Origin: Acidimicrobiia bacterium
Lineage (GTDB): Bacteria > Actinomycetota > Acidimicrobiia > Spongiisociales > Spongiisociaceae
Length of the DNA: 64,000 nucleotides
Assembly: GCA_011523635.1 (NCBI GenBank)
Contig: WTGI01000077.1
Coordinates: forward strand, 1,006 to 65,005
Reading direction: 5' to 3'
A program made the translations under genes and the position numbers. This document shows positions 1,420 to 39,473 of the stretch, one piece after another (within the stretch, counting starts at the first letter, position 1; each line of letters begins with the position of its first letter). The notes below the pieces were generated by a model that saw only the letters and a program-made list of their open reading frames with translations, searched no databases and had not been told where the DNA came from.

Positions 1420-1498
1420 GGGGTACCGGCCCCCGCCCTACCTCCTAACTGCCACAGGGGATGCCCTTCTCGACTGAAAGGGATTGATCACTGATCTA

Positions 1499-1527: not shown

Positions 1528-1566
1528 ACCGAAAAGTCTGGCTAAGCCAGAGAGGAGGGGCAGGTT

Positions 1567-1923: not shown

Positions 1924-1933
1924 GCGCCCAACG

Positions 1934-2883: not shown

Positions 2884-2912
2884 TTGACAGTGTTAAGCGC
2901 ATTAGCTAACTT
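2884..2912 (+). promoter_or_regulatory. sigma70-like promoter TTGACA-N17-TAACTT with the same TTAGCTAA palindrome (2902-2909); upstream of the Ubl operon
   Basis: ttgaca(2884-2889), 17 nt, taactt(2907-2912). GCTAACT direct repeat. Hairpin cccctcggctgagggg at 2923-2938. AAGGAGG RBS before ATG 2988. Confidence 0.45.
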
Positions 2913-2987
2913 GCTAACTAACTCCCCTCGGCTGAGGGGTCGTCGGACCGAAAACAAGACCCCCGTTTCAGCGAAGGAGGCTGAATC

Positions 2988-3269
2988 ATGGTACCAGACA
3001 ACAAGCCGCAGACCATTGACGTGGAGGACCACAAGACGGTCACCATCGTCGTGGAAGGCATCCCCCACCAGTGGCCCGAGGAGTACATCACCTATGCGCA
3101 GGTGGTCACCCTCGAAGTGCCTGACTACGCCCAGCACCCGGAGATCACCTACACGGTGATCTACAAGGGAGGCCCCCGCAACAAGCCCGAAGGCACCCTC
3201 TCCAAGGGTGGCACCGTCAAGGTCGTCGAAGGAATGGTCTTCAATGTTTCAGAAACTGGCCAGTCATAA
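2988..3269 (+). CDS. multiubiquitin-domain (beta-grasp Ubl) protein
   Basis: 93 aa. ...ITYTVIYKGGPRNKPEGTLSKGGTVKVVEGMVFNVSETGQS resembles the multiubiquitin family seen in prokaryotic E1/E2 operons. Confidence 0.6.
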   Translation: MVPDNKPQTIDVEDHKTVTIVVEGIPHQWPEEYITYAQVVTLEVPDYAQHPEITYTVIYKGGPRNKPEGTLSKGGTVKVVEGMVFNVSETGQS

Positions 3270-4437: not shown

Positions 4438-4828
4438 GCTGGAACGAGTCCACTACATGCCGCAGGAGCTAAGTCCCGGGGTGCTCTACGTCTCCGAGGA
4501 GTTCGGCACCGCGGCACACCTGTGCGCCTGCGGATGCGGCACAAAGGTCAGGACGCCCCTTGGTCCCACCGAGTGGTTCCTGGAGGAGACCGATGATGGG
4601 CCGACGCTTTGCCCATCGATCGGCAACTGGCAGCAAGCCTGCCAATCGCACTATCTGATCACAAGTGGTGAGGTGGTCTGGGCCAAGGGGTGGACCGCCG
4701 AAGAGATCGCCGACGGTCGGCGCCGTGAAGAGGCGCGCCGGCGTAAGCACTATGAAGCCCTCGACCGCAAGCACCGGAGCGTCCTGCGCAGGCTGTGGCG
4801 GTGGATCAGCAGCCTGTTCAAACGCTAG
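4418..4828 (+). CDS. DUF6527-like Cys-rich small protein (accessory of the Ubl operon)
   Basis: HLCACGCGTKV...C(x9)C cluster. Start is GTG 4418 (alternative ATG 4457). Overlaps the E1 stop by 20 nt. Confidence 0.5.
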   Translation: MTLAKIRLERVHYMPQELSPGVLYVSEEFGTAAHLCACGCGTKVRTPLGPTEWFLEETDDGPTLCPSIGNWQQACQSHYLITSGEVVWAKGWTAEEIADGRRREEARRRKHYEALDRKHRSVLRRLWRWISSLFKR

Positions 4829-5099
4829 AGCCCAGTAACCGGTTCGGAACAGGGCACGAGGGAGACCGAACCTGACAGATGAGCTACCGGGTACGGGAAG
4901 TGCAGTACGCACTGTCGCCCAAGGTCCTGCGGAGCATGCTCAAGCCCACGCCGGAACCCGCCCTACGAGCGCCTTGCTGCCACTACACCACCACCCTGCA
5001 GCACGGTAACGCACCTCGCCTTGGATGTGCCAGGCCCGGACGCCTCAACTGAATTGCAAATCACGTTCAGGCCATCAGCTACGCAGTGATGGTCGCCGC

Positions 5100-8000
5100 T
5101 CAGGTAGCGGCTAGGTCACGGATTTGTTGGACGATCCTGAAGAACTCGTCGAGGTCGGGCTTGGCGAAGATGGTTTCGGGGCCCTCGGGCGCGACGCTGG
5201 TGAATGGGGACTCGTAGATACGGCCGGGTTGGATGGTGCCGTGTTCGGTGAGGTAGTCGATGACCAGGCTGACGAAGTTGATTTGGTTGACGCTGTAGCG
5301 CTTGTCGTTGAGGAATCTGGCAAACACCCGTTTGGCGGCGGTGCGGTCGAGGCCGACAAGGGAGCGGACGAAGAGTCCGAAGCTGCCGGCACGCATGGTG
5401 GCTTCGGCGAAGGTGTCCGTATCGCCGATGCCAGCCGCGACAAGCACCCGCTGAAGGTCCTGCATGTCGGCTGCTGTGATCGGATGACCGTTGCGGACCT
5501 TGGCGACGATGTCATTGGCGAAGTGGTCTTTGAGGAATCGCTCGGCCTTTTTCTTGAATTGCTCGAAGTCGTGGCTACCAACGCTTCCGCCGATGCCTGG
5601 GAGTTCGATCTCGGTGCCTTCGCCCATCGAGTCTGTGAAATCCGAGTACAGGGGCGTCTTGTGGACGGTTTCGACAAGCTGGACAAGGTTCCGTAGGCGC
5701 TTGCGGGCATCTTCGAGCATGGGATACGTGACGTCGATCCACCACTCGTCGGTTTGGATGTCGATGATCAGTTCTAGCTGCGTGGCGACGGCGGGGATTG
5801 CCGTTCCAAGGTCTTCGAGCGCTGATGCCATGTTGATGATGCGCTTACGTTGTCGCTCGAACGGTTCGTGGCGAAGCAGGCCTAGCTGAGCATTGAGCAT
5901 GAGGACGTCGAAGCGCTTGGCCTCCTCGTTGTCGGGGTCGAGTTGATCGGGGAGCTTCGCAATCCGGTTGTTGAGATCTGCCAGGTCTTGCAGGGTGAGC
6001 GTGTCCCATGCCTCTTGGGTACGGAACCGCTCGACCAGTTCGAGATGGGGACGCACGAGAAAGTTGTACTCGTTCATCGATGCCACAGTCTCACGCAGCG
6101 TGGTGGCGATGTCGGATCGATCGTCGGCGAGAGCCTCGATGCCATCCAGGGCTTGCAGGAGTTCGACGCGGGCAGTGAACAGGATCTCGCTCAGCGGGGC
6201 CGCGCTCTTTGGATCTGCCACAGGGAGCGGCTGGCTGAAGTACTCAAGGTTGCTGCAGAAGTCGAACACGTTGAATGATGTCTTGTCGTCGCCTGGGCCG
6301 AACAGGTCCTTGCAGAGGCGGGTACCACGGCCGAGCATCTGCCAGAACTTGGTCTTGGACCTGACCATCTTGAAGAAGACAAGGTTGACGACCTCGGGTA
6401 CGTCGATGCCGGTATCGAGCATGTCAACGCTGATCGCGATGTGTGGTGCCTTGTCTCTGTTGGAGAAGTCGTCGATCAGGCTCTGTGCGTAGTTGACCTG
6501 GTGGGTGATCACCCGGGCGAAGTTGCCAGCGTCGAGCGCCGGGTAGTTGATGTCGAAACGTTCCTTGATGTAGTCGGCGTGGCGCTGGTTCTTGGCGAAG
6601 ATAATTGTCTTCCCCAGCCGGTCACCACCTGCCACCGTCACGCCTTCGGTCATGAGGTATTTCAGAACCTGGTCGACGGTGTCCTCGTTGAATAGCCACT
6701 TGTTGAGCTCGGCGGCGTTGACCTCATCTGGCGGCTCGATCGGGATGCCGTCATCATCCACGCCCCACTCGAGCTCGTCCCACTCGGCTTTCTCGTCTTC
6801 GGACAGGTCGCCGTAGCGGATGCCCTCGCGCACGAACTTCAGCGGTACCGATACTCCTCGGGGTGGGACAAGGTACCCGTCCCGGATCGCATCATCGAGC
6901 GAGTAGGCGTCGGTTGGTACTCCTGTCTCCAGATCAAACAGGTCATAGGTGTTCTTGTCGACCTCGTCCTTAGGGGTGGCAGTCAGTCCCACCAACAGCG
7001 AGTCGAAGTAGTCGAAGATGCCCCGGTACTTTCGATATACCGACCGGTGCGCTTCGTCGATCACCACCAGATCGAAATGCCCGACACCGAACCGGCGGGT
7101 GCCGTCAGACCGGTACTCATCGATCTTGCCGACCATCGTCTGGTACGTAGACACGTACACCCGTCCGTCTTCGGCGCCTTCACTGACCAGGTTCACGGGC
7201 GCCGAGTCCGGCAAGTGGGTCTTGAACGCGTTGACCGCCTGATTCACCAACGCAGTGCGATCCGCCAAGAACAGCACACGCTTCACCCAACCAGCCCGCA
7301 TCAACAGATCCACAAGGGCAATCACAGTGCGGGTCTTACCAGCGCCTGTGGCCATCACCACCAGTGCCTTACGCTGCTTGTCAACCTCGAAGTGCTCGGC
7401 AACCGCCTGGATCGCTCGCTGTTGATAGTGGCGGTCTACGATCCCCTCGCTGACATCCAAAGATGACAGTGACAACTGGCTATTCCGTCGCTGGATCAGC
7501 AGCGCCAACTCGTCGGCCGTGCAGTAGCCCTGCACCCTTCGAGCCGGATACCTCGTGTCGTCCCACAGCCAATGCTCATACCCGTTGCTGTAGAAAACGA
7601 CCGGGCGCTGTCCCGTCTCAGCCTCTAGGCAATTCGCGTACAGTTTGGCTTGCTGTTGGCCAGCCTGAGGGGCGACCGAAGTCTTCTTCGCCTCCACCAC
7701 GGCCAATGGCAACCCATCGTCGCCCCACAGCACATAGTCGACGTAGCCAACCCCCGAGACCGAAGGCATCCCCCGTACCTCGTATTCGATCTCGCATCCG
7801 TCATCAGGGTCGGCCCAGCCCGCCTCGCCTAGCAGAGCGTCTATCTTGTACCGGCGCGTTTCTGCCTCGGACCAGTCGTGCGCCCCGATCGGAATGGACT
7901 CGGCTGCCTTCTTCGCCGCCGCTACCTCAGCCCTCAACTCCCCTAACTGTGCAGCGAGCCCTTCGGCCGTTTGGTGAGGCTCCGCCAACCCATGACGGGC

Positions 8001-8510
8001 CCGCAAGCCGTTCGCGACATCCCGTCCCAGACGTTCCTCAAGATCTTGACGGGCCTTCAGTGAAGGCTTCGCTTGCCCGCCATCGCCTCGGAGAAGGCCC
8101 GGGTCGAAATGCGCCAGAGGATCGGGTTTTGTTGATCGGCCATAGGTGAAGGCCAACCACAGACAGAACTGGAACAACGCAGACACCACCTCCACAGCGT
8201 CCAGCCTCGACGGCGGCCTCGCCTTCTGCACCGCACGATCACCCGCGCGCTGAATCTTCCGAGCCCAACCGAAGACCCGACCACCGGCTAACGCCTTGAA
8301 TGCAGGTTCATTGATGCAGGCATCCAGATGATCCTCATACGGATCCGGAAGCCCACGGTCATACCGGTACATCCACCTGACACCCGACTCCAAACACTTC
8401 CTCGCATAGACCACCGCCGAGCCTGGATCCGACAACACGAGACGCTCTGCCCAACACGCCAGCCCAAACTCGACCGAGAAGTCCTCTTCGAGGAACGAGA
8501 ACTGGCTCAC
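5100..8510 (-). CDS. hsdR: Type I restriction enzyme R subunit
   Basis: SF2 helicase motifs VVMATGAGKT and DEAH-box (VVIDEAHRS). 1136 aa. 4-nt overlap with hsdS. Confidence 0.9.
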   Translation of the reverse strand: MSQFSFLEEDFSVEFGLACWAERLVLSDPGSAVVYARKCLESGVRWMYRYDRGLPDPYEDHLDACINEPAFKALAGGRVFGWARKIQRAGDRAVQKARPPSRLDAVEVVSALFQFCLWLAFTYGRSTKPDPLAHFDPGLLRGDGGQAKPSLKARQDLEERLGRDVANGLRARHGLAEPHQTAEGLAAQLGELRAEVAAAKKAAESIPIGAHDWSEAETRRYKIDALLGEAGWADPDDGCEIEYEVRGMPSVSGVGYVDYVLWGDDGLPLAVVEAKKTSVAPQAGQQQAKLYANCLEAETGQRPVVFYSNGYEHWLWDDTRYPARRVQGYCTADELALLIQRRNSQLSLSSLDVSEGIVDRHYQQRAIQAVAEHFEVDKQRKALVVMATGAGKTRTVIALVDLLMRAGWVKRVLFLADRTALVNQAVNAFKTHLPDSAPVNLVSEGAEDGRVYVSTYQTMVGKIDEYRSDGTRRFGVGHFDLVVIDEAHRSVYRKYRGIFDYFDSLLVGLTATPKDEVDKNTYDLFDLETGVPTDAYSLDDAIRDGYLVPPRGVSVPLKFVREGIRYGDLSEDEKAEWDELEWGVDDDGIPIEPPDEVNAAELNKWLFNEDTVDQVLKYLMTEGVTVAGGDRLGKTIIFAKNQRHADYIKERFDINYPALDAGNFARVITHQVNYAQSLIDDFSNRDKAPHIAISVDMLDTGIDVPEVVNLVFFKMVRSKTKFWQMLGRGTRLCKDLFGPGDDKTSFNVFDFCSNLEYFSQPLPVADPKSAAPLSEILFTARVELLQALDGIEALADDRSDIATTLRETVASMNEYNFLVRPHLELVERFRTQEAWDTLTLQDLADLNNRIAKLPDQLDPDNEEAKRFDVLMLNAQLGLLRHEPFERQRKRIINMASALEDLGTAIPAVATQLELIIDIQTDEWWIDVTYPMLEDARKRLRNLVQLVETVHKTPLYSDFTDSMGEGTEIELPGIGGSVGSHDFEQFKKKAERFLKDHFANDIVAKVRNGHPITAADMQDLQRVLVAAGIGDTDTFAEATMRAGSFGLFVRSLVGLDRTAAKRVFARFLNDKRYSVNQINFVSLVIDYLTEHGTIQPGRIYESPFTSVAPEGPETIFAKPDLDEFFRIVQQIRDLAAT

Positions 8511-9667
8511 AACTCACCCTGGAACGCACGCTGCTGTAGCGAAGCGAACAGCCTGTCGCATCGCCGGGATGAGCGATTGAGGACATCTCGCTGCCGCGCG
8601 ATCATCCTCAAGTAAGACTCGAACTGTCGCTGAAGCTTGAGCGCAGGAATCGGGATCTTGATTTCCTTGAGGATTGCTTGGTTAATCTTGTGTGTCCCGT
8701 TGGTAGTTCGCGCAGCACTCTCGATCTGACGACGAACGATTGGCGTATTCCAGACTCGACTAAGAAAGTCTCGCGAAATCAACTCAGAATCACACCGAGC
8801 AGCGATCATCGTATCAGGAAAGGCGACATCGGGGAGACTTTGTTGTGGATACTTCCCTCGCCCAACCAGAAACAGATTTCCGTTGCCACGACAAATGAGA
8901 AACAGGTCTGCTGAAACTGTCTGCTGCACGACATGAGGCCTAACAAAAGTGCTGTTCTTGACTGCATCTGGATCAAAGGACAAACCAGTAATGGCTGAAA
9001 GGGTTAGTACTCGTCCTGGGAATTCACCTGACGTTGATGGTGACACTCCATTACGCAGTGGTTTCGTCATTAATGTCTCAAACCTTACTTGTCTAAGCGT
9101 CGTTAGATTATCGAACAGGTCGGCAAACACGGCTTCGACGAATCTGTCGAGCTTGGCGAGGGCCTGGCGGCGCTTCGCTCGAAGCGCCTCAGCCGCGTCT
9201 AACACCGCTGCGATACGCCGCTGCTCCTCTAACGCCGGCAAGGAGATAGGAATGTCGGCGACGTACGATGGCCTGGCGCGAAGCAATGATCCTCCGACCC
9301 CTGCGACGGTCTGGATAAAGGCATGATGAAATCGATCGGACACCAGTACATAGCGCAAGTACGCAGGATCGAAGCGATCACTCCGGAAGATGATCCATTC
9401 GCTCGACCCGATGGCCGGCCGATCAGAGCCCAGCTCTACAACCCATGCGCGTCGAATGTGCGGGACAATCTTTGAGAGGAGGACGTCACCGCTCTCAAGC
9501 ACCTGTTTACGGGAGCCGACTTCCCTGCCACTAACGAGCTCGGGCACCTTGGCATCGAATGCTGGGATGCTGAAGAGTTCGAACTCATCATCGGGATTCT
9601 TGCGTGGATCGATGGAACGCGTTCTTGTTGACATCAGTTCACCAAGCGGTACGCTTGCGAAAGTCAT
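8507..9667 (-). CDS. hsdS: Type I RM specificity subunit with two target recognition domains
   Basis: Duplicated TRD architecture with conserved spacer helices (LPALEEQRRIAAVLD ... IPIPALKLQRQFESYL). Overlaps hsdM and hsdR by 4 nt each. Confidence 0.8.
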   Translation of the reverse strand: MTFASVPLGELMSTRTRSIDPRKNPDDEFELFSIPAFDAKVPELVSGREVGSRKQVLESGDVLLSKIVPHIRRAWVVELGSDRPAIGSSEWIIFRSDRFDPAYLRYVLVSDRFHHAFIQTVAGVGGSLLRARPSYVADIPISLPALEEQRRIAAVLDAAEALRAKRRQALAKLDRFVEAVFADLFDNLTTLRQVRFETLMTKPLRNGVSPSTSGEFPGRVLTLSAITGLSFDPDAVKNSTFVRPHVVQQTVSADLFLICRGNGNLFLVGRGKYPQQSLPDVAFPDTMIAARCDSELISRDFLSRVWNTPIVRRQIESAARTTNGTHKINQAILKEIKIPIPALKLQRQFESYLRMIARQRDVLNRSSRRCDRLFASLQQRAFQGEL

Positions 9668-11232
9668 GCCAACATTGCCTTAAGTTCGTCGACGCCTCTT
9701 AGGATTTCTGTCTCCAGGGCTGTGAGTTCGTCGAGGATCTGGGTTGGCGGTGGGTATTCGATTTCGTTGTAGATGATTTCTTTGTAGCGGTTGATGCTGA
9801 GGTCGTAGGCGTTGCTCACGATGTCGGACTTGGGTATGCAGAAGGACTGCTCGGTGCGGACACGTGACATCTCCGTAGTGGTGCGTTTCTGCCAGCGGGC
9901 GAGAACGTCGGGTAGGTTGTTCTTCTCATGCTCTTCATCGGTCAGCTCCCCCTCCGTGAGTACGCCGAGTTTGGCCTCGTCAAGTAGCGGGATGCGCTTG
10001 TCGTCGAGGCTGTAGCCGTCAGCCTCCAAGTCATAAAACCAGACATGGTCGGTGCCGCCAGAGTTGGTCTTGGTGAACAGCAGGATGGCGGTAGAGACCC
10101 CGGCGTAGGGTTTGAACACGCCGGATGGGAGCGAGACGATGCCCTCGAGCTTCTGGTCTTCAACCAGAATACGGCGAAGCTCTTTGTGAGCCTTGGTCGA
10201 GCCGAAGAGTATCCCATCGGGCACAATCACCGCCGCTCTTCCACCGGGTTTGAGGAGTCGCAAGAACAGTGTGAGAAACAGCAGTTCGGTCTTCTTGGTC
10301 TTGACGACCTTCAGGAGGTCCTTCGCTGTGCTCTCGTAGTCGAGCGAGCCTGCGAAGGGCGGGTTGGCCAGGATCAGGCTGTAGGACTCCGTGCCTCCGG
10401 CGTGGTCCTGGGCTAGGGAGTCCCGGTAGCTGATGTTGGGGTTCTGGACTCCGTGGAGCTGCATGTTCATCGACCCGATCCGGAGCATCGTGTTGTCGAA
10501 GTCATAGCCGGTGAACATCGTGCTGTGGAAATGTCGTGCCTTGACTGGGTCGGTCAACGCGATCGGATGTCGGTCACGGATGTGTTCGCCAGCCGCTACT
10601 AGGAACCCGCACGTCCCGCTTGCGGGATCGCAGATAGTGTCGTCTGGTTGGGGGGCGACCATTTCGACCATCAGCCGGATGATGTGGCGCGGGGTACGGA
10701 ACTGGCCGTTTTGCCCGGCTCTGGCGATCTTGGAGAGCATGTACTCGTAGACGTCACCCTTTGTGTCGCGGTCTGTCATCGGGATCGAGTCGAGACCGTC
10801 CACTGCCTTCTGCAGCAGCCCAGGGGTGGGGATCGTGAGACGGGCACCGCGCATGTGTTTGGCGTGAGTGCTCTCCTCCGCCCGCTGGTGCAGGAACGGG
10901 AAGACGTATCTCTCGACTACCTCGAACATGTCGGCCGCGGACATGTGCTTGAACCTCGACCAGCGAAGGTCACTGTACGGTCGGCCGTTGATGAGCCCTT
11001 CAGGCAGGAATTGTTGGCCCTTAGGGAAGATGACCACATCGATCGGCTGGCCGGTTCGGTTCGCTTTGTTCTCGGCGAGTGTCTGGCGTTCGTCGAGGGC
11101 CTTGATGAACAGCAGATAGGTGAGTTGCTCTATCACCTCGAGCGGGTTGGATATGCCACCCGACCAGAAGCTGTGCCAGACAGCGTCGATCTTGTTTCTG
11201 ACCTCACCGGTGAGCATTGGTTCCCACTTCAT
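9664..11232 (-). CDS. hsdM: Type I RM N6-adenine DNA methyltransferase
   Basis: HsdM N-terminal domain, motif I (DPASGTCGFL) and motif IV (NPPF in LILANPPFAGS). Confidence 0.9.
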   Translation of the reverse strand: MKWEPMLTGEVRNKIDAVWHSFWSGGISNPLEVIEQLTYLLFIKALDERQTLAENKANRTGQPIDVVIFPKGQQFLPEGLINGRPYSDLRWSRFKHMSAADMFEVVERYVFPFLHQRAEESTHAKHMRGARLTIPTPGLLQKAVDGLDSIPMTDRDTKGDVYEYMLSKIARAGQNGQFRTPRHIIRLMVEMVAPQPDDTICDPASGTCGFLVAAGEHIRDRHPIALTDPVKARHFHSTMFTGYDFDNTMLRIGSMNMQLHGVQNPNISYRDSLAQDHAGGTESYSLILANPPFAGSLDYESTAKDLLKVVKTKKTELLFLTLFLRLLKPGGRAAVIVPDGILFGSTKAHKELRRILVEDQKLEGIVSLPSGVFKPYAGVSTAILLFTKTNSGGTDHVWFYDLEADGYSLDDKRIPLLDEAKLGVLTEGELTDEEHEKNNLPDVLARWQKRTTTEMSRVRTEQSFCIPKSDIVSNAYDLSINRYKEIIYNEIEYPPPTQILDELTALETEILRGVDELKAMLA

Positions 11233-13432
11233 TCTCCGTTTCGATCATCGCGTTCCTCAAACTGAGGATGCCGGCCACGAGGCCTTCGCGGACCGTATCG
11301 TAGGTGGTGCGGCAAGCTTCGAGTGTCTCGTCGAATTGGGACATCTGCGTCTCGATAGCGGTCAGACAGGCGACGAGGGCTTTCTGTTCTTCGAGGGCTG
11401 GCAGGTGAACTTCGATGTCTTTGAGCGTGTCATGCCTTAGGTTGGCGATGACACTTCCTGTGGCAGCTCCTGCGAGGGCTGCTCTCCCCCGCCTGGATGT
11501 CAGATACAGCCTCAGGTAGTCAGGATCCAAGCGTCTCTGGTCAGGTCGGAGTCTGATCAGCCAGTTCGAGAACGATGCAGGAACATCGAATCTGACTATG
11601 GCGCACGCTACAGATCTGTGGCCATCGATCCCACGCGTCACAAGTAGGAGATCCCCTCGTCGGACCATCCGACCTCGAACATGGCCGAACGTGGACTCAG
11701 CAGGAACGTTGGCCAGGATCGGCTGTCCCTGGATAACCATTCCGGTTGTGACGTACGGCGTCGGATCGCCTTCGCCGCCTTCACGTTGCCGTATGCCAGG
11801 CAACGGATCAGTGATCAACAAGTCACCCAGGCGGTGATGCGAGAAACTTGGGCCATCCACCGGGTCGATTGCCGAGAGTTGCTGCCGGATCGTAGCCTCA
11901 ACTGTCGGGAGAGCCGCCAGACGCTCCTTGACGGTCGTTGTGAGACGTTTCTGCCGGGACCGGATCGGCTCACCGTTGATCTCCGTGATCTTCACCGCGT
12001 ACTGGATGTAGCGACTAGGGCCCAGTGCGCTGCCGTTTGCAACAATCTCGTCGGTGGTGCCGATGCCGCTGAACTGAGCTTCGGGTTCCAGCCGTCCGTC
12101 ACGCCACCGCTGTATCGTCCGTCCGATCTTGACTATCTCGGGTGGCTGGAAGCTACGCACTCCCCCTCTCTCGGGCGTTCCGAGTTGACGAGCATCGAGA
12201 AACAGAACCCTCCCGGCACGATTCACTCGGTCCTTCTGCAGAACCAAGATCGCAGTGGGTATAGACACCGACGTGAGCATCCCCGGCGGGAGGTAGAGGA
12301 CAGCATCCACGTAGTCGGCCTCTAACAGTCCCGTCCGGATTATGACCTCGGAGCGGCCACGTCTCGTCAAAGCGGTGGTCGGGAGCACAACAACTCCGAT
12401 ACCGGAGTCGGCGAGGTGGAACACAACGTGCTGAACCCAAGCAAGGTCAGCGTGCCCCTTCGGAGGTAACCCTAAGAACCACCGGGGATCACCGTCCATC
12501 TGCTCGACCGAGGCGAGACGGAGACCGAACGGAGGTTCGACAGCGATGCGGTCGGCTCTCAACTGCCAGAGACGATCATCGACCATCGTGTCACCGGTCA
12601 CGAGCTGGAAGGACGCGCCCTGCAACAGCAGGTGGAGGAACCCGAGCCTCCAGGTCTGCTCCCTGATCTCTTGACCATAGAGTTGGGTCACCGTATCCGA
12701 ATAGCGTTCCCATGTCGATCCCAGGAAGACAGCTCTGCCACAAGCTGGGTCGTAGACAGTTCCCTCAAGAGGTTCGAGCAAGGCTGTCATGATGTCGACA
12801 AGGCTTGGCCCACTATCGACGTTGCCCGCCTTAGCCCCACGACGCTTGGCGAAGTCTTCGAGGAGGACTGTTGAGGCATCCCCCCAGTCGGTTGAGCGGG
12901 GGTGGAAGTGACCAACAGTTTCGATCAGTCGAGTCCAGTCTGAAGGCCGCAACTGGCTCACAACAGACGACACCCTCAGCGCCCTAGCGAGGTCGGGGTC
13001 CGACATGGTCAGAGCGTCGGCGGTCGAGGAATACACCAGTCCGGGGTCGTTTGCTGCTTCGATCCGGCCCCAGGCACGTGCGAGCGGAGTCAGACGCTCG
13101 TATCGACCGGAAGCTGCCGCGCGCAGGGCGAATAGTTGCAGCAGGACCTCCGGAGTGTCGAACACACCGGGGAGATCGCGCACTGCATACGTAGCCTGTA
13201 ACACCGCACTCTCGATCGAGTCCTGTTCTGGAAGGTGGACACTCTTGCCCGCGGCTCGAAGCCACGCCACGATCTGAGCCCGGTCGAAGAGTCCTTCCTC
13301 AGCTTCTGTCGGGAAGTCCGGGTGGCGACGCTTCCAGTTCGACACCGCAGACGGTCTAACCCCAGCGAGTCTTGCGATCTCGGCACCTGTGATCAGGATC
13401 GGAGTTGATGGGTTTGTATCTGGGACCGTCAT
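11204..13432 (-). CDS. HTH + gamma-class N6-adenine MTase + TRD fusion protein (second, non-canonical M/S polypeptide)
   Basis: N-terminal HTH (ILITGAEIARLAGVRPSAVSNWKRRHPDFP). Motif I (YDPACGRAVFLG) and motif IV (VEPPFG). C-terminal HsdS-like TRD with LPALEEQKALV helix. First gene body of the operon after the NYN gene. Confidence 0.75.
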   Translation of the reverse strand: MTVPDTNPSTPILITGAEIARLAGVRPSAVSNWKRRHPDFPTEAEEGLFDRAQIVAWLRAAGKSVHLPEQDSIESAVLQATYAVRDLPGVFDTPEVLLQLFALRAAASGRYERLTPLARAWGRIEAANDPGLVYSSTADALTMSDPDLARALRVSSVVSQLRPSDWTRLIETVGHFHPRSTDWGDASTVLLEDFAKRRGAKAGNVDSGPSLVDIMTALLEPLEGTVYDPACGRAVFLGSTWERYSDTVTQLYGQEIREQTWRLGFLHLLLQGASFQLVTGDTMVDDRLWQLRADRIAVEPPFGLRLASVEQMDGDPRWFLGLPPKGHADLAWVQHVVFHLADSGIGVVVLPTTALTRRGRSEVIIRTGLLEADYVDAVLYLPPGMLTSVSIPTAILVLQKDRVNRAGRVLFLDARQLGTPERGGVRSFQPPEIVKIGRTIQRWRDGRLEPEAQFSGIGTTDEIVANGSALGPSRYIQYAVKITEINGEPIRSRQKRLTTTVKERLAALPTVEATIRQQLSAIDPVDGPSFSHHRLGDLLITDPLPGIRQREGGEGDPTPYVTTGMVIQGQPILANVPAESTFGHVRGRMVRRGDLLLVTRGIDGHRSVACAIVRFDVPASFSNWLIRLRPDQRRLDPDYLRLYLTSRRGRAALAGAATGSVIANLRHDTLKDIEVHLPALEEQKALVACLTAIETQMSQFDETLEACRTTYDTVREGLVAGILSLRNAMIETENEVGTNAHR

Positions 13433-14049
13433 GCCGCCACCTCCGGGGGTGCAAGATTGGGTAGGAGCCGCACGAACGTAGCGGCATTCGCAAGTCCACT
13501 CGAGAGGCTTCGCCCGCGTGATACCACCCCGACAGGCAGCCCGTGCGATCGGAATCTCGTGACCATCTCTTCGAAGATGCCGTCGCCCGATCCGATAATG
13601 ATTTGGTCATACCGTTCAGCTATGAAGCGGTCATCGTTCACCCAAGCCAGCAACGCAAGATCGGCTCCGTCCGGACCTCGACCTGACAGGACCCTGGGCG
13701 ATGGCCATGCGGCTTTGGTGATGGGGAGAAGTGCCGGATTGACAGCAACCACCACGTGATCTCCGTCGACCACCGAGGCTCCAGCCTTATAGAGGGCAAT
13801 GGCCTGGAGGAGCATGTGAGTACCCGTCCACGGACCACCCATCAGGTTCTCCAGGTCGACCAGATGCAGGGTCCGACCGGGGGGAACGTGCTGGGCCCGA
13901 GGGAAACGTCGCGGCGAAACCGCGTATAGGTGCGCGTAGCGCCGCCGCACGTCTCGGCTGTGAACAGTGCCTCTGAGTGGTTTGTGACTTAGAGTCATAA
14001 GGTTGACACTAGCGGGTCGCCCCACCGCTGTCAAGTGACTTCCATTCAC
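13429..14049 (-). CDS. NYN/LabA-like (PIN-fold) domain protein
   Basis: LHLVDLENL...GGP and ...QIIIGSGDGIFEEMV match the NYN acidic-residue pattern. 4-nt overlap with the MTase-TRD gene. Start is GTG 14049 or ATG 13998. Confidence 0.55.
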   Translation of the reverse strand: MNGSHLTAVGRPASVNLMTLSHKPLRGTVHSRDVRRRYAHLYAVSPRRFPRAQHVPPGRTLHLVDLENLMGGPWTGTHMLLQAIALYKAGASVVDGDHVVVAVNPALLPITKAAWPSPRVLSGRGPDGADLALLAWVNDDRFIAERYDQIIIGSGDGIFEEMVTRFRSHGLPVGVVSRGRSLSSGLANAATFVRLLPNLAPPEVAA

Positions 14050-14104
14050 ACTTCACCAGAACGGAAGACCGTCTCTCCAAATGGTCGCCCATAGCATCAT
14101 CGAA

Positions 14105-14152
14105 GCTGTGGGCCCGGCAGGACTCGAACCTGCACCCAACGGATTATGAGTC
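14105..14152. repeat. Direct repeat of the 3' end of tRNA-Met (att-site duplication)
   Basis: 14109-14152 tgggcccggcaggactcgaacctgcacccaacggattatgagtc matches 21306-21349 (1 mismatch) plus shared gctg flank, same orientation. Partner is the full tRNA at 21306-21379. Confidence 0.7.
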
Positions 14153-14818
14153 GGCATAAAACCCCAGCTAAAGTATAGTTTTCAGGTCAGTCCCATTCGA
14201 CTGACCCACAGGACACTAGGCATGGGCGGAGCCTTTCCCAGCAGAAACGCCAAGGCGCCCTCGGACTCCGCCCAGCCCGTCACATCCAGCCCCATAGTGG
14301 CACCCGGTGCTGGCGGCCGGCCTCATCCGCTCGCCGAGAATCGCGCACAACGGTGTCAAGGTCGACTTCGGCCCAGACCGCTCCGATCACCTCCCTGAGC
14401 GAACCGCTGTGACTATGGCGAACGATACGGCGAAGTACAGCTTCCGATGGACCGTTGATTGTCGGATCTGCTCTGGGCCATACGGAGACGTTGGGGATTT
14501 CCATAGCAAGCTCGGAGGTGTCCTGGCTCCCCGTTGTTTCGGCAGCGCGGTCAACGCGTCGCCTGCTTGGTTGTCGCGGCGGTATCCTGGGCGACGGCTA
14601 TTCCATGACGGCCGCGATAAGTGGCTGTACTCGTTTGGCTGTCGCCGGGCTGCTGTTCCTCGGGGCGAGGTGCGGTGGCAGTCGCAGATGAGTACCGACG
14701 TTTCCTGACTCGGAGGGCTGGGCTCGCTCTGTGCCTGAAGGCCGGCCAACCGGAATCGTGCTGGAGCACATCGCCATTCCTTGTGACTGATCGGCTCGAT
14801 GACAGATGGCCGTTGGCG

Positions 14819-17752
14819 ATGGCCGTTGGCGTGGATGCTTGCAGAACCGGGAGATACCGTGCCGTGACGAAGTCCGATTCGAAGCAACGTGGCAACATCG
14901 GCACGAGCGCAGTGTCCCTCAAATTCGAACGAGATCTCTTCTGGGGGACCGCGGACAATTCGCGAGATGATCGAGGCATCGACTTCTTTGCGCTGGCTCG
15001 TGACTCGTTGCTGGGCATGCGAGAGATTCCAATCGGGATTCAAGTCAAGACGGGCAAGTCGAGATTCGACAGAGCCAAGCGGCAAGCTGACGGCGACATC
15101 GAGGGCTGGTGGTACGAATCGAGCAAGCAACGCTTCAAGTACTGGGAGGAGTACGGCGTACCCGTACTGCTCGTTCTCCACAACGAGGACGACGATGTCT
15201 CGTTCTGGGTCCACGTTACACAGGACGCGTATGAGTCGACAGGCACGCGTGCCAAGATCCTGGTACCGCGACGTCAGACCATAAGCAAGCTTTGCAAAGA
15301 TCAGCTGCTCCGCATCGCCGACCGACATAGCGCGTCTCTGGCGCTCGAGGGAACAGTCCTCGCGGACAGCCTCGAAGGAGTCCCATCCGAGCGCCGAATG
15401 CGGTACGCGCTCGTCGTCCCCAGATTCATAGCGCCGCCCCCGCACGTGGCCAGAGAGCGCCCGATCGACGCGTGCGAAGCAGTCGCGCTTCTTGCCCAGG
15501 GCGACCTCCGCGTATTGGATGAGATTGTCGACAAGCACGACGAGGTGCCCAGGCCTGAGTCCCTTAACGCAGATGCAAGTTGGGATTGGCAGTTCACCGC
15601 CGCGATCTGGGATTGGTTGGTAAGCCAATCGATAGACAAGCTGAAGAACATCTACGAAACTGCCCCCGAGGGTCACAGCGCGGCTGCGAGTGGTGTGCTG
15701 CTTGCCTGCGCTTTGGGCCGTCGAGAACGCCACGAAGACGCCGTCGCGGTCCTCTATGGACTCATCCGGCGCGGCGATCCTGACGCCCTCGACCGCGCAT
15801 GGGTCCTCGCACAGCGCGCCCGGTGGCACGCTGACCTCGGCAACTTCGATGCCGCCCAATCCGACGCTGCCGATGCGCGCCGATTGCTCGACGGCGTTCA
15901 CAACGACGCCCTAGTCTCCGCGCCCATGGTCTCGGCGCTCCTCGCATCAGCCACACGGACGATGAACGTCATAGCCGCGACGAGGCGCTTTCGAGACCGT
16001 TCCTCGGATGCTGAGTCCACCGACCTGTGGATTGCTGAGCAACAAAAGGCCTACCTTGAACTGTTGAAGGCATCTGACACCACCGTCTCATGGTGGCGCG
16101 CCAGGAACGTTGCCTCAGCATTGGGGCGAGCGCAAGACGCCAACTTCGAGTCATGGGTAGAGGACAACCCACCGCAATACGTAGGCGGAAGTCCAATGCC
16201 AGAAACGAAGCTCTTGGCCGCCGAGTTCAACGCCGACATCACGGGTGAGCATGGGTCCTGGCGAACACTCTCAGCCCGCCGCGGAGTTCAGAACCTCTTA
16301 CGTGCTGCGTCCTTACCCGATACAGCAAGGGAGTTAGGAGAAGGCCTCGACACCGTGCGACGCAGTGGCGACTCGAACCGCTTCACCAAGGCAACTCACC
16401 ACCTACTCAGAACCGGTCCACTAGCGGCCGTTGCTGCCTCGGTCCGGAAGGTCCCCACAGCGGGATGGACCCACACAACAGCGAAGACGAACTTCGACGC
16501 CCTAGCACTAGCAGGGGATCTCATCGACCAATCCGTTGCTGACCAACTGCTCGAACAGTGCGCCCGCGCGGCGTGCGGAGAAACGACAGCGCTTGGCTGC
16601 ATACAAGACGACGGGTACTTCAGCCTTCCCGCGTTTGCTACGGAAGCAGCAGCTGGTGTACTCCCAGCCGCGTCCGCCAGCTCGCACGACAGCTTCACCG
16701 GTTACCTAGCCAAGCTACCGGAAGTCGAGCCAGGCTTCTTCCTTCGTGGTCTTGAACGAGCGCTGTCGTTCTTGGACTACACGCAAATCGGTCAGGAGAA
16801 TCGACGAGGGTTGCTCGCGCTCTCTGAACGAGGACATGCCCAGCTAAGTGCCGCCGTATGGGGCTGGTTCGCGAGTCACGGTGACTCTGCTGCTATACGT
16901 TCGCTCATACGAGCTGCTGCGCAGGGCGACATCTACGCACTCGCCGAAATCGAGGACCCGTCGGTATTCAATGAGTCCGAGAGTGCCGCGCTCATGGACA
17001 CTCTTGCGCAACGTGTAGATCAGGCTCACGCTGACGCCCTCACTGGTGCGGGCAGCAGCTGGAACAGTGCGTTCTGTCATGCGCTCACTCGACTGAATCT
17101 CACGATCCCCAGCAGTGCCCGTTGGGAACCGGTGATCACCCTTCTCGGCGAACCGCGCTCCTTCGTCGAAGACAAGGCCGCTATCTGTAGAGCCCTGGGC
17201 ACCGACGCTCAACAAATACCGGAGGACGTGCGCGATCAACTCGCCGCTCTCGTCGACGTCGCAGCATCGGCGTCGGCCTCGTTCTGGCCAGGTGCAGAAG
17301 CAGCGGGAATCGAGATCAGGCTCAAGATCGCTTTGGCACTAGTCGACGAGAGCGAAACCGACAGAGCCCTTGTTCGACTCGCACTGGGCTCACATCAGGA
17401 ACGTCGAGACGCCTGCTTGATACTACGATCGTCAGCTTGTGCCAGTCGTCGACTGTTACTGGAGTTCCTGTATCGGGACGCCAACTTCACTGTGCGCTAT
17501 CAGGCCGCCCAGACAGTCGCCCACCTTGTTGCCACCGAAGCGAGCGATGCCGACATTGACCTCGCGTGGAAGGTGGTCCGCGACGACGGGCGCCACCTAC
17601 CGATTGCCCTCCTTCAGGGGTTCGCGGCGGCTCCAGGTGTTCCCGCACCGATCGCCCAAGAAATCAGTAACTCCTTTGAGCATCACCCCTCCGCAATAGT
17701 TCGGCACCACGCCGCACAACTTCAGCAACTCTCCTCCGCCGAGCCCCATTAG
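14819..17752 (+). CDS. DUF4365 (PD-(D/E)xK-like) N-terminal domain fused to long alpha-helical HEAT/TPR-like region
   Basis: N-terminus ...GNIGTSAVSLKFERDLFWG...DDRGIDFFAL...IGIQVKTGKSRFD...YWEEYGVPVLLVLHN matches the DUF4365 pattern. Rest is ~800 aa of Ala/Leu-rich helical repeat. Alternative upstream start 14621. Confidence 0.6.
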   Translation: MAVGVDACRTGRYRAVTKSDSKQRGNIGTSAVSLKFERDLFWGTADNSRDDRGIDFFALARDSLLGMREIPIGIQVKTGKSRFDRAKRQADGDIEGWWYESSKQRFKYWEEYGVPVLLVLHNEDDDVSFWVHVTQDAYESTGTRAKILVPRRQTISKLCKDQLLRIADRHSASLALEGTVLADSLEGVPSERRMRYALVVPRFIAPPPHVARERPIDACEAVALLAQGDLRVLDEIVDKHDEVPRPESLNADASWDWQFTAAIWDWLVSQSIDKLKNIYETAPEGHSAAASGVLLACALGRRERHEDAVAVLYGLIRRGDPDALDRAWVLAQRARWHADLGNFDAAQSDAADARRLLDGVHNDALVSAPMVSALLASATRTMNVIAATRRFRDRSSDAESTDLWIAEQQKAYLELLKASDTTVSWWRARNVASALGRAQDANFESWVEDNPPQYVGGSPMPETKLLAAEFNADITGEHGSWRTLSARRGVQNLLRAASLPDTARELGEGLDTVRRSGDSNRFTKATHHLLRTGPLAAVAASVRKVPTAGWTHTTAKTNFDALALAGDLIDQSVADQLLEQCARAACGETTALGCIQDDGYFSLPAFATEAAAGVLPAASASSHDSFTGYLAKLPEVEPGFFLRGLERALSFLDYTQIGQENRRGLLALSERGHAQLSAAVWGWFASHGDSAAIRSLIRAAAQGDIYALAEIEDPSVFNESESAALMDTLAQRVDQAHADALTGAGSSWNSAFCHALTRLNLTIPSSARWEPVITLLGEPRSFVEDKAAICRALGTDAQQIPEDVRDQLAALVDVAASASASFWPGAEAAGIEIRLKIALALVDESETDRALVRLALGSHQERRDACLILRSSACASRRLLLEFLYRDANFTVRYQAAQTVAHLVATEASDADIDLAWKVVRDDGRHLPIALLQGFAAAPGVPAPIAQEISNSFEHHPSAIVRHHAAQLQQLSSAEPH

Positions 17753-17871
17753 GTGGAGCTGGGCCCCTGATCTCCATCTTGCGGTCAACGGTTCTGGTCC
17801 ACCTTGACGGCTCGTGAACCGGTCCAATGCCGACCCGACAATCTGTCTGCGACAACGTGTAGACCGTCAAT

Positions 17872-18759
17872 GTGGAGGCTGGAAATGCACGGGCCGGCCT
17901 AGGCGCTCCTTCCAGTCACCGCAACGCAGGGTCGCGCATCTCATCCGGGTACTTCCCAGACGTGATGCTCTGCCGTGGTTCCGTCCTCTCAAGGTCCGGA
18001 GCCTGTGTAGTCCTCGGTGGGCTCACCGAGGACGTTCGCCCACACCTGCGAAACGCGAGCGCGATCCTGCATGGGTATATTTGCTCGGTGGCTTCGACGG
18101 ATGAGTTCACCGCATTGCGCCGCAGAGTGATGCGGCGATGCGTATACGCCCTGAATGCCTTGGCGTTGCGCGATGATCGGGTGCCCCGTGACGGTGCATT
18201 CGATGCAGCAGCGGCGAATGCACTTGCAGCCATTGTCGCTTACATGGCTAGCGGGCGTGAGTACAAGAGCAATGGCAGTTGGGTTCAACCGCCGACGGCG
18301 TTACTGGCAATTGTCAGGCGAGAACCTGAGATCAAGACGGATACTCTAAACAATTCTGAATTGCATACGCTGGGGGAGGGAATAGAGAAGGCCAAGTTGA
18401 TCCGGCATGGTCGAGCTGACGAAGAGTGGGATGTGCTGAATAAGAGACATGTTGATGCGTTGATTTCACTAGATCAACATCCTGCTCTTCAGGTCTTGGA
18501 GATCGTCGATGGACTGGACTTTACACAAGCAGCCGTCGAACTCTACAGGACGGAAACTGAGGAGCTAATGCCATTCAGCCCTAAGGAACGCTCAATGGTA
18601 CCTGAGCCTTCAGAATGCGACTACTGCGGACGCATGACTCTTATCACCGAGGGATCCGATGTGTTCGGCTTCGATCCAGGCGAGGGAACCTGCATCGCCT
18701 GCGGTAGAGAAAGAACCTATGACGACACGGTTCACGACTACGCCTGGAGGGTGCGATAA
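17872..18759 (+). CDS. hypothetical protein with C-terminal CxxC...CxxC zinc ribbon
   Basis: CDYCGRMT...CIACGRE at the C-terminus. Co-directional with neighbours. No recognisable family. Confidence 0.4.
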   Translation: MEAGNARAGLGAPSSHRNAGSRISSGYFPDVMLCRGSVLSRSGACVVLGGLTEDVRPHLRNASAILHGYICSVASTDEFTALRRRVMRRCVYALNALALRDDRVPRDGAFDAAAANALAAIVAYMASGREYKSNGSWVQPPTALLAIVRREPEIKTDTLNNSELHTLGEGIEKAKLIRHGRADEEWDVLNKRHVDALISLDQHPALQVLEIVDGLDFTQAAVELYRTETEELMPFSPKERSMVPEPSECDYCGRMTLITEGSDVFGFDPGEGTCIACGRERTYDDTVHDYAWRVR

Positions 18760-18933
18760 CTACTTACATCGCTGCCCATTGGGCTGCCCATCGCTGATGT
18801 CCAGTCAAGTGCACCGGCTCAAGCCGTGGCTAACGTGGCCCGCTGCCGTGCCCCAAGTTCAAATGCGTCCTACGACAGACCACAACCAAGCATTTTGAGG
18901 CTGCGTGAGGCCGACCCGTCTTGGTGATCTCCA

Positions 18934-20139
18934 ATGTCAAGTTGGGGGCTGTCTTGCTGTATCGGCCGCCGGGGCCGACCACTTTCGGGGGAGCACCCCG
19001 AGAGCCAGACGGAGGAGGCAAAAGAGCCTCACCCGATCGATGACGAGCCGAAACCGTGCTTCTACCAGTCACAGCGGACCCAGATCCCCACCGGCGAGCA
19101 CCCTTCCGCGACCTCGTGTTGCGGCGGGAGGGTATGTCATAGCCGTGTCGCCATGTCCAAAGACTGCGTGGTCCATGCCTACGACGAACAACTTCAATCC
19201 CTTCTTGAGACAGCCCTCGATCAGCATCCGGAAGTGCTCGCCCTTCGTAGACGGTTCGACATCGCCGGCAAACAACTCAAGAACCACATCCGATGCGTGG
19301 CCCTATCCCAGAGCGCCCGAAGGTACCTGTTCAGCGCCGTGGACGAGGCATGGTGCATCGACCCAGAAGGAAGGGGAATCTGGGCGCTTCGATTCCCAGC
19401 CAAGGAACCACAACCACAGCACACCCACAACATCCACATCGGAACCAGCAAGGAAGTCGAACAGGCTCTGGACATCATGGACCTCACCATGCCCTTCACG
19501 CCGAAGGACCTGAAACGGCGTTACCGCGAACTCGCTAAACACCACCATCCCGATCGCAACCCGCACAATCCCCGCTCCGCAGAAGCTATGGCAGCCATCA
19601 ACCACGCCGCCGAGATCCTCACTGGGGCGGATGCCGCCGCGCTGGAACACGGCATCACCATCACGATCGGGATCCAGTTCGGAGCAAGCGAACAATTCGC
19701 CTCTGACTGGATCTACGCGGCCAGCTTCGCCGCAGGATCCGACGCGGCCTACCTCGCCAGCTACTCCGGCCGGGTGGTACTAGTAGACCAAAACGGGAAA
19801 GGCCAGCGGGTCTACGACATCGGAAGCGTCCCCACCCAGATCATTGACACGGGTGACTACCTCTACCTCCTGACCGGCACCAGACTGTACGTGCTGCGAA
19901 ACAACGCACTGTGCGCACTGGTAGATACCTACGAGAAAGGTACACTCGTCGCCGCCCAGACCGGCTTCGGACTCCTCCAAAACAAACGATTCCGCTGGTA
20001 CCGCGAAGACGGCCGCTACCTCGGCACCGTCCTCACCAAAGCCCCAATCCGCCATGTCCACTCCAACGGAGACACCATGACAGTGGAAACCCGCCAACGA
20101 CGAGCAACCATACGCGGAGTACCCGCATGGTGGGGCTAA
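18934..20139 (+). CDS. J-domain (DnaJ-like) protein with unrelated N- and C-terminal regions
   Basis: Internal J domain DLKRRYRELAKHHHPDRNPHNPRSAEAMAAINHAAEIL (HPD motif). No CXXCXGXG repeats, unlike the bona fide dnaJ at 38363. Start uncertain. Confidence 0.55.
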   Translation: MSSWGLSCCIGRRGRPLSGEHPESQTEEAKEPHPIDDEPKPCFYQSQRTQIPTGEHPSATSCCGGRVCHSRVAMSKDCVVHAYDEQLQSLLETALDQHPEVLALRRRFDIAGKQLKNHIRCVALSQSARRYLFSAVDEAWCIDPEGRGIWALRFPAKEPQPQHTHNIHIGTSKEVEQALDIMDLTMPFTPKDLKRRYRELAKHHHPDRNPHNPRSAEAMAAINHAAEILTGADAAALEHGITITIGIQFGASEQFASDWIYAASFAAGSDAAYLASYSGRVVLVDQNGKGQRVYDIGSVPTQIIDTGDYLYLLTGTRLYVLRNNALCALVDTYEKGTLVAAQTGFGLLQNKRFRWYREDGRYLGTVLTKAPIRHVHSNGDTMTVETRQRRATIRGVPAWWG

Positions 20140-20191
20140 GCCCATCTACCGACACTGCTCGCGGGCATTCCGTCAGCCGTGCGTCCGCCGT

Positions 20192-21109
20192 GTGTCAGCA
20201 AGGTCGAAGCACTACTCACCCTGGGTGGGCGAACGTCTGTTTGCTACACTAGCGAGACCTGCCGATATCTTTGTGAGGTTCCGGATGACGGCCTTCTTGA
20301 ACGCTGAAGCTGATACTGACCCCGCTCACGCTTCGCCCCGTCATGGACGCCCCGTCGCGCTCGCCGACCCTGCCCTTGCCCTGAACATGGTGACCGAGTT
20401 CCTCGATGCGGCTAGTTGCAGTACGAGCGCATACCACAAGGGCATGTACGACGAACACATGCGACACGAAGCGCGGATGCGACGCTTGTTGCCGCTGCTT
20501 CGGGAAATTGCTGAGCGAGTACATCCGAGCGTCGTCGCAGACCTAATAGAACCCAACCGGGTGTTTTACGACGAGTCTGGTGACCCGGCATGGCATTGGG
20601 GGCCAACCGAACGAGCGACCGAGACACTCGCTGGTGTCCTAGAACACCAAGATGTCTATGAGAAGATATTCGGAAACTCTGGCCCGTCGCTTGCCGCCAG
20701 TGGTCTTCACAAGTGGGTTTGGGACGCCGCGAAGGGTCGATGGGATGCCGGTTACTACGGAGACGCAGTGCATGCAGCCGCCGAAGTCATCAGCCAGAAG
20801 ACCAAAGTGAAGCTCGGTAGGCGGGATATCACGGGAACTGGCCTATACAGCAGTGCCTTTTCCCTTGACCCGCCTAAACCCGGCGAGCCGAGGCTGCGCT
20901 TCGCTTCTGTAGACGAGCAAGACCAAAGTACTTGGAGGTCTGTCCATCAAGGAGCGATGCATCTGGGAATGGCCTGCTCCCTGGGAATTCGTAACCGCCA
21001 AGCCCACAAGACGGCGAACCGACTCACTGAACAGGAAGCACTTGAGCAGCTCGCAGCATTGAGCGTCTTGGCCCGCTGGGTGGAGAAGGCCGTACTGGAG
21101 AGCCCGTAG
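20192..21109 (+). CDS. HEPN-superfamily protein (TIGR02391 hypoth_ymh-like), Rx4H motif
   Basis: C-terminal ...GYYGDAVHAAAEVISQKTK...GIRNRQAHK...EQEALEQLAALSVLARWVEKA fits the TIGR02391/HEPN consensus with R-x4-H (RNRQAH). Confidence 0.6.
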   Translation: MSARSKHYSPWVGERLFATLARPADIFVRFRMTAFLNAEADTDPAHASPRHGRPVALADPALALNMVTEFLDAASCSTSAYHKGMYDEHMRHEARMRRLLPLLREIAERVHPSVVADLIEPNRVFYDESGDPAWHWGPTERATETLAGVLEHQDVYEKIFGNSGPSLAASGLHKWVWDAAKGRWDAGYYGDAVHAAAEVISQKTKVKLGRRDITGTGLYSSAFSLDPPKPGEPRLRFASVDEQDQSTWRSVHQGAMHLGMACSLGIRNRQAHKTANRLTEQEALEQLAALSVLARWVEKAVLESP

Positions 21110-21305
21110 TAGAGGTTGATCGAGAAGACTCCGTCAACGCACAGCTCAACATTGCGGCCTCGATGTTGGTCCTTCGGAGCGCTTGGTGACAACCAGTTCG
21201 GACGGGTAGATCCTGCACAATCTGCTGGTGGGCGAGAGCCAGAACCCGCCTCTGACCTTGGAGCTTAAGTAGCTATGAAACAGTTAGCGACTAGTAGAAA
21301 CGCTG

Positions 21306-21379
21306 TGGGCCCGGCAGGACTCGAACCTGCAACCAACGGATTATGAGTCCGCTGCTCTGACCGCTTGAGCTACGGGCCC
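21306..21379 (-). tRNA. tRNA-Met (anticodon CAT), 74 nt, CCA not encoded
   Basis: Cloverleaf folded by hand: acceptor gggcccg/cgggccc, D stem gctc/gagc, anticodon stem gcgga/tccgt with loop ctCATaa, T stem gcagg/cctgc with ttcgagt loop. Confidence 0.9.
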
Positions 21380-39454: not shown

Positions 39455-39473
39455 GGGCGACCCCCGGACAGGA

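Follow-up and report, generated by a model that had tools for sequence, protein, structure and literature searches.

Four consecutive genes of an Acidimicrobiia bacterium raise the question of whether genes that look like a tidy operon also work as one machine. They lie in a 64,000-nucleotide stretch of contig WTGI01000077.1 (assembly GCA_011523635.1), hereafter the window, as four open reading frames (ORFs) between positions 14819 and 21109, all on the plus strand and in the order G1, G2, G3, and G4. They encode, respectively, a DUF4365 nuclease joined to a long helical solenoid, a Zn-ribbon protein, a J-domain protein, and a HEPN protein, and they occupy a 7.2-kb islet (14105–21352). This islet forms the tRNA-proximal end of a defense island that spans at least 21 kb and adjoins the 3′ end of a tRNA-Met gene. 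A first-pass annotation made from the sequence alone had reported four co-directional genes with these domains, which our ORF and family scans bear out, and had read them as an immune or abortive-infection module rather than housekeeping genes. Its view of the region as island cargo of the immunity type agrees with our results, but the four genes do not read as one system. The best explanation, which we regard as probable, is a mosaic of independently acquired gene-sized cassettes, one of them a truncated remnant. We do not consider the genes one module because their families do not co-occur, no neighbor is conserved, homology ends at the gene edges, and G3 is truncated.

Co-occurrence, cassette edges, and spacing

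The four families were compared across 134 other loci, comprising 37 of G1, 86 of G3 (including 80 metagenome loci), 5 of G4, and 6 of G2. For G1, 32 loci with 10-kb flanks were taken from a one-genome-per-species scan and four more from relatives with 84% and 82% identity. Profile hidden Markov models (HMMs) of all four families were run on every six-frame segment of all loci. Neither tblastn, even at E < 1, nor the profile HMMs detected a relative of G2, G3, or G4 in these 36 G1 loci, and both methods likewise found no relative of G1, G2, or G4 in the 80 metagenome loci of G3. The other three families are absent from the five G4 loci, whose relatives are 88, 84, and 66% identical and have quite different neighbors, and the 13 further loci (one G1, six G3, and six G2) contain only their own family. 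No two of the four families therefore stand together in any of the 134 loci, and only copies of the present locus hold more than one. Homologs that never occur together elsewhere are one of the two findings that the first-pass annotation had itself named as speaking against a single module.

Neighborhoods already differ at G1 relatives of 84 and 82% identity and at G4 relatives of 88 and 84% identity. All-against-all clustering revealed no conserved neighbor of G1 or G3, the commonest cluster being present in five of 37 G1 loci and seven of 80 G3 loci. Genes near members of these two families include those of type IIG and type I restriction-modification (R-M) systems, RmrA, PbeA, MADS, Mokosh, Lamassu, AriA, GajA, and DrmMII, with E-values down to 1e-300. 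Elsewhere the complete four-gene arrangement was found on only 15 contigs, which come from several samples and all place it in one and the same chromosomal setting. The islet DNA is 99.96–100% identical in the six contigs compared over 7.4 kb, which indicates one lineage, and at this level of identity population variation is uninformative as a measure of selection.

The edges of similarity tell the same story at the DNA level. When the islet was compared with all other loci by blastn, similarity to the nearest relatives ended at the edge of each gene (Table 1). Judging from these sequence relationships, each of the four genes appears to have its own history.

The spacing of the genes depends on where they start. 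The first-pass annotation had described short gaps, a description that fits the longest ORFs (119, 174, and 52 nt) but not the starts supported by homology. G2 homologs are typically 210–240 aa long and begin to align at residue ~67–77 of the ORF, the alignment of G3 with its homologs sets in only at "MSKDC" (19153), and G4 homologs have 240–280 aa, the called product beginning at 20285. In the N-terminal extensions that the longest ORFs carry, the G+C content at second codon positions (GC2) is 0.52–0.59, compared with 0.44–0.49 in the conserved cores, which is atypical for coding sequence here. Homolog alignments and GC2 together place the starts at ~18070–18088 (G2), 19153 (G3), and 20285 (G4), so that the intergenic gaps are about 320–335, 393, and 145 nt, unlike those of the neighboring R-M operon, in which stops and starts overlap. 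For G1, 14819 is an in-frame ATG within the ORF 14621–17752; at the other end, 21109 is the final base of the G4 stop codon. Promoter and terminator scans found no plus-strand terminator-like site between the four genes, with counts at or below shuffled expectation and hence uninformative.

Table 1. Features of the islet and extents of DNA similarity, in window coordinates; L numbers are compared loci
Feature	Position	Strand	Description
Distal direct repeat	14105..14155		51-nt copy of the tRNA-Met 3′ part, att-like scar; 49/51 identical to 21302-21352
Orphan ORF	14280..14504	-	74 aa, between repeat and G1; gene call in 3/7 source-contig tables
G1	14819..17752 (longest ORF from 14621)	+	977 aa, DUF4365 nuclease and α-solenoid
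G2	18088..18759 (longest ORF from 17872; homology begins near 18070)	+	~223 aa, C-terminal Zn-ribbon
G3	19153..20139 (longest ORF from 18934)	+	328 aa, 5′-truncated J-domain/β-propeller copy
G4	20285..21109 (longest ORF from 20192)	+	274 aa, solo Ymh-family HEPN
tRNA-Met (CAT)	21305..21379	-	ARAGORN; its 3′ part (21302-21352) is the proximal repeat copy
G1 DNA similarity	14717-17769		87% to L034/L035, 84% to L036/L037; these relatives are 82–84% identical to G1 in protein
G2 DNA similarity	18072-18740		75% to L138
G3 DNA similarity	19148/19150-20134		80% to L038
G4 DNA similarity	20153-21145		91% to L118, 84% to L119

Architecture and relatives of the four proteins

The protein encoded by G3 matches Pfam DnaJ with 42 bits (cut-off 27.8), and its H132-P133-D134 motif is invariant. 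As the first-pass annotation had stated, it is a J-domain protein and not the bona fide DnaJ: it falls far short of every DnaJ equivalog cut-off of NCBIfam, with 32 bits against 377 for TIGR02349, and so does not qualify as a class A/B DnaJ/Hsp40 chaperone with G/F region, Zn-finger, and C-terminal client-binding domains. The true dnaJ (38363–39454), also noted before, belongs to a dnaK-grpE-dnaJ operon on the minus strand (38363–41965).

The family to which G3 belongs normally consists of proteins of ~700 aa, with more than 560 homologs that are 50–60% identical, occurring in Acidimicrobiia, Rhodospirillales, Bryobacterales, Dadabacteria, and Thermodesulfobacteriota and annotated only as "J domain-containing protein." In the AlphaFold2 (AF2) model of one ~700-aa member, P0035 (predicted local distance difference test score, pLDDT, 81), a helical domain (residues 38–172) and a winged-helix-like unit (178–219) precede a BamB/WD40-like propeller (286–453 and 560–694), within which the J domain (472–538) is inserted. 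G3 is 79% identical to residues 372–700 of P0035. It begins at family residue ~372–374, inside the propeller, and continues to ~701, retaining the J domain with its HPD motif (nt 19471–19623) and the C-terminal blades; residues 1 to ~371 are missing, and tblastn found the N-terminal ~370 residues of the family nowhere in the window. The onset of DNA homology falls at 19148–19150 in more than 25 loci. G3 is thus the C-terminal 47% of a ~700-aa protein. The missing part, which comprised the helical domain, the winged helix, and about two blades, was lost at a breakpoint between 19093 and 19150, and because the propeller is broken, G3 is probably inactive. The adjoining ~390 bp of G2–G3 junction DNA (18760–19147) resembles none of the fetched loci; within it, a weak remnant of J-domain-family similarity may extend as far as ~19093.

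Natural short family forms of 347 aa, which would make G3 a normal member, were considered and rejected, since the two entries examined that start at the same Met are both gene-calling artifacts. In L127 (4952–7044), a long-form gene, a frameshift ~60 nt upstream of the Met separates the N-terminal half, the upstream ORF terminating at an out-of-frame TGA inside the conserved CTGATC, and in L125 (5459–7044) the frame stays open on the upstream side of the called Met and keeps its homology to the family. A phage origin of the family was also rejected, with only one match in 2.9 million viral contigs.

Complete members of the J-domain/propeller family are always stand-alone genes (L038–L117, L125–L127, and L134–L136), and their neighbors include MADS, Mokosh, Lamassu, PARIS, Gabija, and DISARM genes. 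On repABC plasmids of the Roseobacter group, the gene is located beside genes for a zincin-like peptidase, SSB, H-NS, RadC, and ParB, in a setting that resembles a plasmid leading region. The role of the family may lie in defense, anti-defense, or establishment. Our literature search returned nothing on a J-domain/propeller plasmid protein and no J-domain protein described as a component of a defense system; the only link found was the host DnaJ, which is required for phage sensing by bNACHT25 (PMC12169576).

The G1 protein matches Pfam DUF4365 with 77 bits (cut-off 24.3) over residues 27–166. Its AF2 model (pLDDT 82; predicted template-modeling score, pTM, 0.76) consists of an α/β nuclease at residues ~20–168 (nt 14876–15322) and an α-solenoid at residues ~184–975 (nt 15368–17743) made almost only of helices, two isolated single-residue bridges excepted. 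The earlier description of DUF4365 followed by ~800 aa of HEAT repeats is therefore right about the fusion to a helical solenoid of ~800 aa, but "HEAT" is only approximate: the window protein has just a weak TPR match, and HEAT_2 is matched by some of its homologs. In Foldseek searches, the N-terminal ~150 residues matched the DREN domain of SPARDA (9qcc, 9vx6, and 9jsz; E about 1e-5), and the remainder matched generic solenoids such as CAND1, importins, and PP2A-A. The motif D…QxK is intact, with D55 and Q75 invariant across 21 homologs and K77 present in at least 90%. For the DUF4365 nuclease TmuRE, the active site has been proposed to include Q62 and K64, the residues that were mutated in its inactive control (PMC10810196).

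PADLOC names no system for the region, just as the first-pass annotation recognized none. Its sole match is at the domain level, between the N-terminus of G1 and Aga_REase, a model of an Argonaute-associated restriction endonuclease, and G2, G3, and G4 gave no match. PADLOC detected no Argonaute among the nine window proteins scanned, and none is among the 25 commonest PADLOC families in G1-family neighborhoods. G1 itself has no Pfam match to an ATPase or NTPase and no APAZ domain.

Compared with SPARDA, G1 shares the DREN/DUF4365 PD-(D/E)xK fold and the QxK motif in its first ~150 residues, but it lacks APAZ, has no Argonaute gene nearby, and carries the nuclease on an α-solenoid in a gene that stands alone. 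Divona (DUF4365 + crr6), listed among anti-phage systems from Vibrio integron cassettes (bioRxiv 10.1101/2024.07.02.601686), is likewise a single polypeptide in which a DUF4365 nuclease at the N-terminus is joined to a domain that is not a nuclease. The comparison covers the DUF4365 domain; the partner domain of G1 is an α-solenoid with no Pfam match to crr6. The order of an N-terminal nuclease effector and a C-terminal helical-repeat sensor also recalls the logic of Avs and other STAND NLR-like proteins, which differ from G1 in having a central NTPase. A hidden, Avs-like NTPase in G1 is ruled out by the almost entirely helical model of residues 184–975 together with the absence of a Pfam NTPase match.

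The most likely role of G1 would be that of a single-polypeptide abortive-infection nuclease, for which the collateral DNase of SPARDA, activated by assembly, serves as our working model. By this analogy, the solenoid may act as both sensor and autoinhibitor, and the DREN-type PD-(D/E)xK domains might be brought together when a phage or plasmid component binds or when the protein oligomerizes. The nuclease domains so released or assembled could then cleave DNA without discrimination, in the manner of this domain in SPARDA. The novelty of the locus lies mainly in G1, which is a new architectural variant of nuclease-plus-sensor defense proteins. We tentatively suggest, with the chances slightly below even, that G1 founds a new single-protein defense family combining a DREN nuclease with an α-solenoid sensor and needing neither Argonaute nor NTPase.

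Members of the G1 family occur in Acidimicrobiia (including the sponge-associated Ca. Poriferisodalis), Solirubrobacterales, Streptomyces, Nocardia, and a metagenome-assembled genome of Latescibacteria, and are plasmid-borne in Streptomyces, Rhodococcus, and Glutamicibacter. They are always single genes in varying neighborhoods, which include type IIG and type I R-M, RmrA, PbeA, and MADS. One G1 homolog of 1137 aa (P0026) has Pfam matches to DDE transposase and is named "transposase" at its source; it is probably an insertion-sequence insertion or fusion, or an annotation artifact.

G4 matches Pfam Hypoth_Ymh (PF09509) with 87.3 bits (cut-off 25), its HEPN domain being located at nt ~20702–21082. 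The first-pass label of HEPN (TIGR02391, Rx4H) is supported by this Pfam family and by the Rx4H motif but not by TIGR02391 itself, for which the score is 22 bits against a cut-off of 39. The motif R267-N268-R-Q-A-H272 (RNxxxH) is intact; in an alignment of 120 family sequences, R is retained in 99% and H in 97%. A sequence search of the PDB gave nothing significant. Ymh HEPN proteins, which are predicted RNases, occur as solos, as fusions, or in operons with R-M systems (PMC3710099). Like many of them, G4 is a solo gene near an R-M system, from which picture it departs by a ~140-aa N-terminal region without a named domain and by the lack of an MNT, paraMORC, or AbiJ-NTD partner. Neither G2 nor G3 has a Pfam or PADLOC match to an MNT nucleotidyltransferase, a tRNA gene follows G4, and no antitoxin-like partner is evident. 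G4 might be an RNase triggered by stress or phage, and it is plausible that G1 and G4 are stand-alone abortive-infection effectors, a role assigned from their domains. At another locus (L120, 3244–8834), the gene for a G4 relative with 66% identity shares 4 nt with the end of a gene for a 1586-aa protein with PLD, AAA, HSDR_N, and ResIII matches; some Ymh HEPN genes thus have a coupled partner, different from anything in the window.

G2 is a conserved Zn-ribbon protein of ~220 aa that belongs to a small uncharacterized family and travels alone. This family comprises 118 cluster representatives, typically of 210–240 aa, which match residues ~75–290 of the ORF. Four cysteines (CxxC…CxxC) of the C-terminal Zn-ribbon are invariant across 25 homologs, as is R-H inside an RHGRxDDEW consensus. 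No Pfam family and, in sequence searches, no significant PDB match were found. The six G2 loci include Streptomyces linear plasmids and one contig on which the gene lies beside a type IIG-like methylase; others place it beside transposase or excisionase-like helix-turn-helix genes. The idea that G2 is the missing N-terminal half of the J-domain protein was rejected, because BLASTP against P0035 and tblastn of the N-terminal halves against the window were both empty.

The tRNA-Met islet and the defense island

The tRNA-bounded element proposed in the first-pass annotation is confirmed by a tRNA-Met gene and a 51-nt direct repeat of its 3′ part. Together with a G+C content of ~0.60 from 1 to 21000, left of the tRNA gene, and ~0.66 beyond it, the repeat gives the region two features of a tRNA-integrated island, a duplicated tRNA 3′ end and a deviant composition. 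No integrase domain was detected among the ORFs of 14156–21301 or among those tested in 1–14100. The 560 bp between the tRNA-fragment repeat and the G1 cassette (14156–14716) contain the orphan ORF as their sole ORF, and no integrase or excisionase was recognized there. This ORF has no Pfam or NCBIfam match and is possibly not a real gene.

The left third of the window is a defense island, in which the islet is accompanied by a type I R-M system, a toxin-antitoxin pair, and an E1-like/BubE pair. The type I R-M operon (5100–14049, minus strand) comprises hsdR (5100–8510), hsdS (8507–9667), hsdM (9664–11232), a gene for a second methylase, a 742-aa methylase-specificity fusion (11204–13432), and a 206-aa NYN-like gene (13429–14049), all with overlapping stops and starts. 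On the plus strand (3208–4828), a DUF6791-ThiF (E1-like) gene at 3208–4437 is followed by a BubE-like gene at ~4418–4828, which suggests a ubiquitin-like conflict system of the Bub/Bil type. Further to the left (273–2569, plus strand), a DUF433 gene (273–905) and a DUF5615/PIN-like gene (859–1419) resemble a toxin-antitoxin pair, and an IrrE/M78 peptidase gene is located at 1934–2569 (plus strand).

Competing readings and their implications

Several points weigh against the interpretation of the locus as a mosaic of independent cassettes. Protection against phage by any of the four genes, like the activation mechanism of G1, is something that we infer. The islet carries no integrase that would explain its assembly. 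G3 has 328 codons without a stop or frameshift and an intact HPD motif, and a residual or new function is possible. The genes are co-directional with no plus-strand terminator-like site between them, and they may therefore be co-transcribed in this lineage. Only five G4 and six G2 loci entered the comparison, several of them on short contigs, and the description of the neighborhoods as defense-rich is qualitative, being based on PADLOC neighbor counts without a matched control.

Among the other readings, it is unlikely that the islet is what erosion has left of an old integrative element, with genes that no longer function. The lack of an integrase, one demonstrably truncated gene, and repeat copies that differ at two of 51 positions are consistent with such decay, and the near identity of the compared copies leaves no population signal of selection. 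However, G1, G2, and G4 are full length for their families and without frameshifts, and they retain every invariant or catalytic residue checked.

We consider it very unlikely that the locus contains a lineage-specific pair in which the truncated J-domain protein, or G2, regulates the adjacent HEPN toxin. The G3 stop lies only ~14 nt from the start of the G4 cassette, the HPD and RNxxxH motifs are both intact, and a solo HEPN toxin usually needs some control; the arrangement would loosely resemble sacsin, which combines DnaJ and HEPN domains in one protein (PMC3710099). Nevertheless, none of the 86 G3-family loci has a Ymh HEPN gene and none of the five G4-family loci has a J-domain or G2-like gene, while relatives of G4 are either solo or coupled to other partners, for example the 1586-aa PLD/ResIII protein, and G3 is a fragment without part of its propeller. 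It is even less probable that the juxtaposition has become a newly formed working unit, in which G3 would recruit host DnaK to restrain the HEPN RNase, and perhaps the DREN nuclease too, until infection titrates the chaperone; if true, this would be a bacterial counterpart of the pairing of J domain and HEPN in sacsin.

A single four-gene immune or abortive-infection system, with the DUF4365 nuclease and the HEPN RNase as its effectors and a J-domain protein that recruits host DnaK, is most improbable: nuclease, RNase, and J-domain genes do run in one direction through one islet of a defense island, with no terminator-like site detected between them, and links between chaperones and defense exist, as in bNACHT25, but not one of the 134 loci shares two families, the closest relatives have other neighbors, cassette-sized homology blocks end at the gene edges, the J-domain gene is truncated, and gaps of 145–393 nt contrast with the overlapping stops and starts of the adjacent R-M operon.

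The reading as a mosaic of gene-sized cassettes removes a false lead, in that a tidy four-gene "operon" is a patchwork and should not be catalogued as a defense system. It also offers a view, at base-pair resolution, of how defense islands can be built of single-gene cassettes with homology ending at the gene edges. Two candidates are left: the widespread ~700-aa J-domain/propeller family, represented here by no more than a fragment, and the DREN-nuclease/α-solenoid family of G1, found on chromosomes and plasmids of Actinomycetota. If the latter is protective, the effector nuclease of SPARDA would be able to work without Argonaute.

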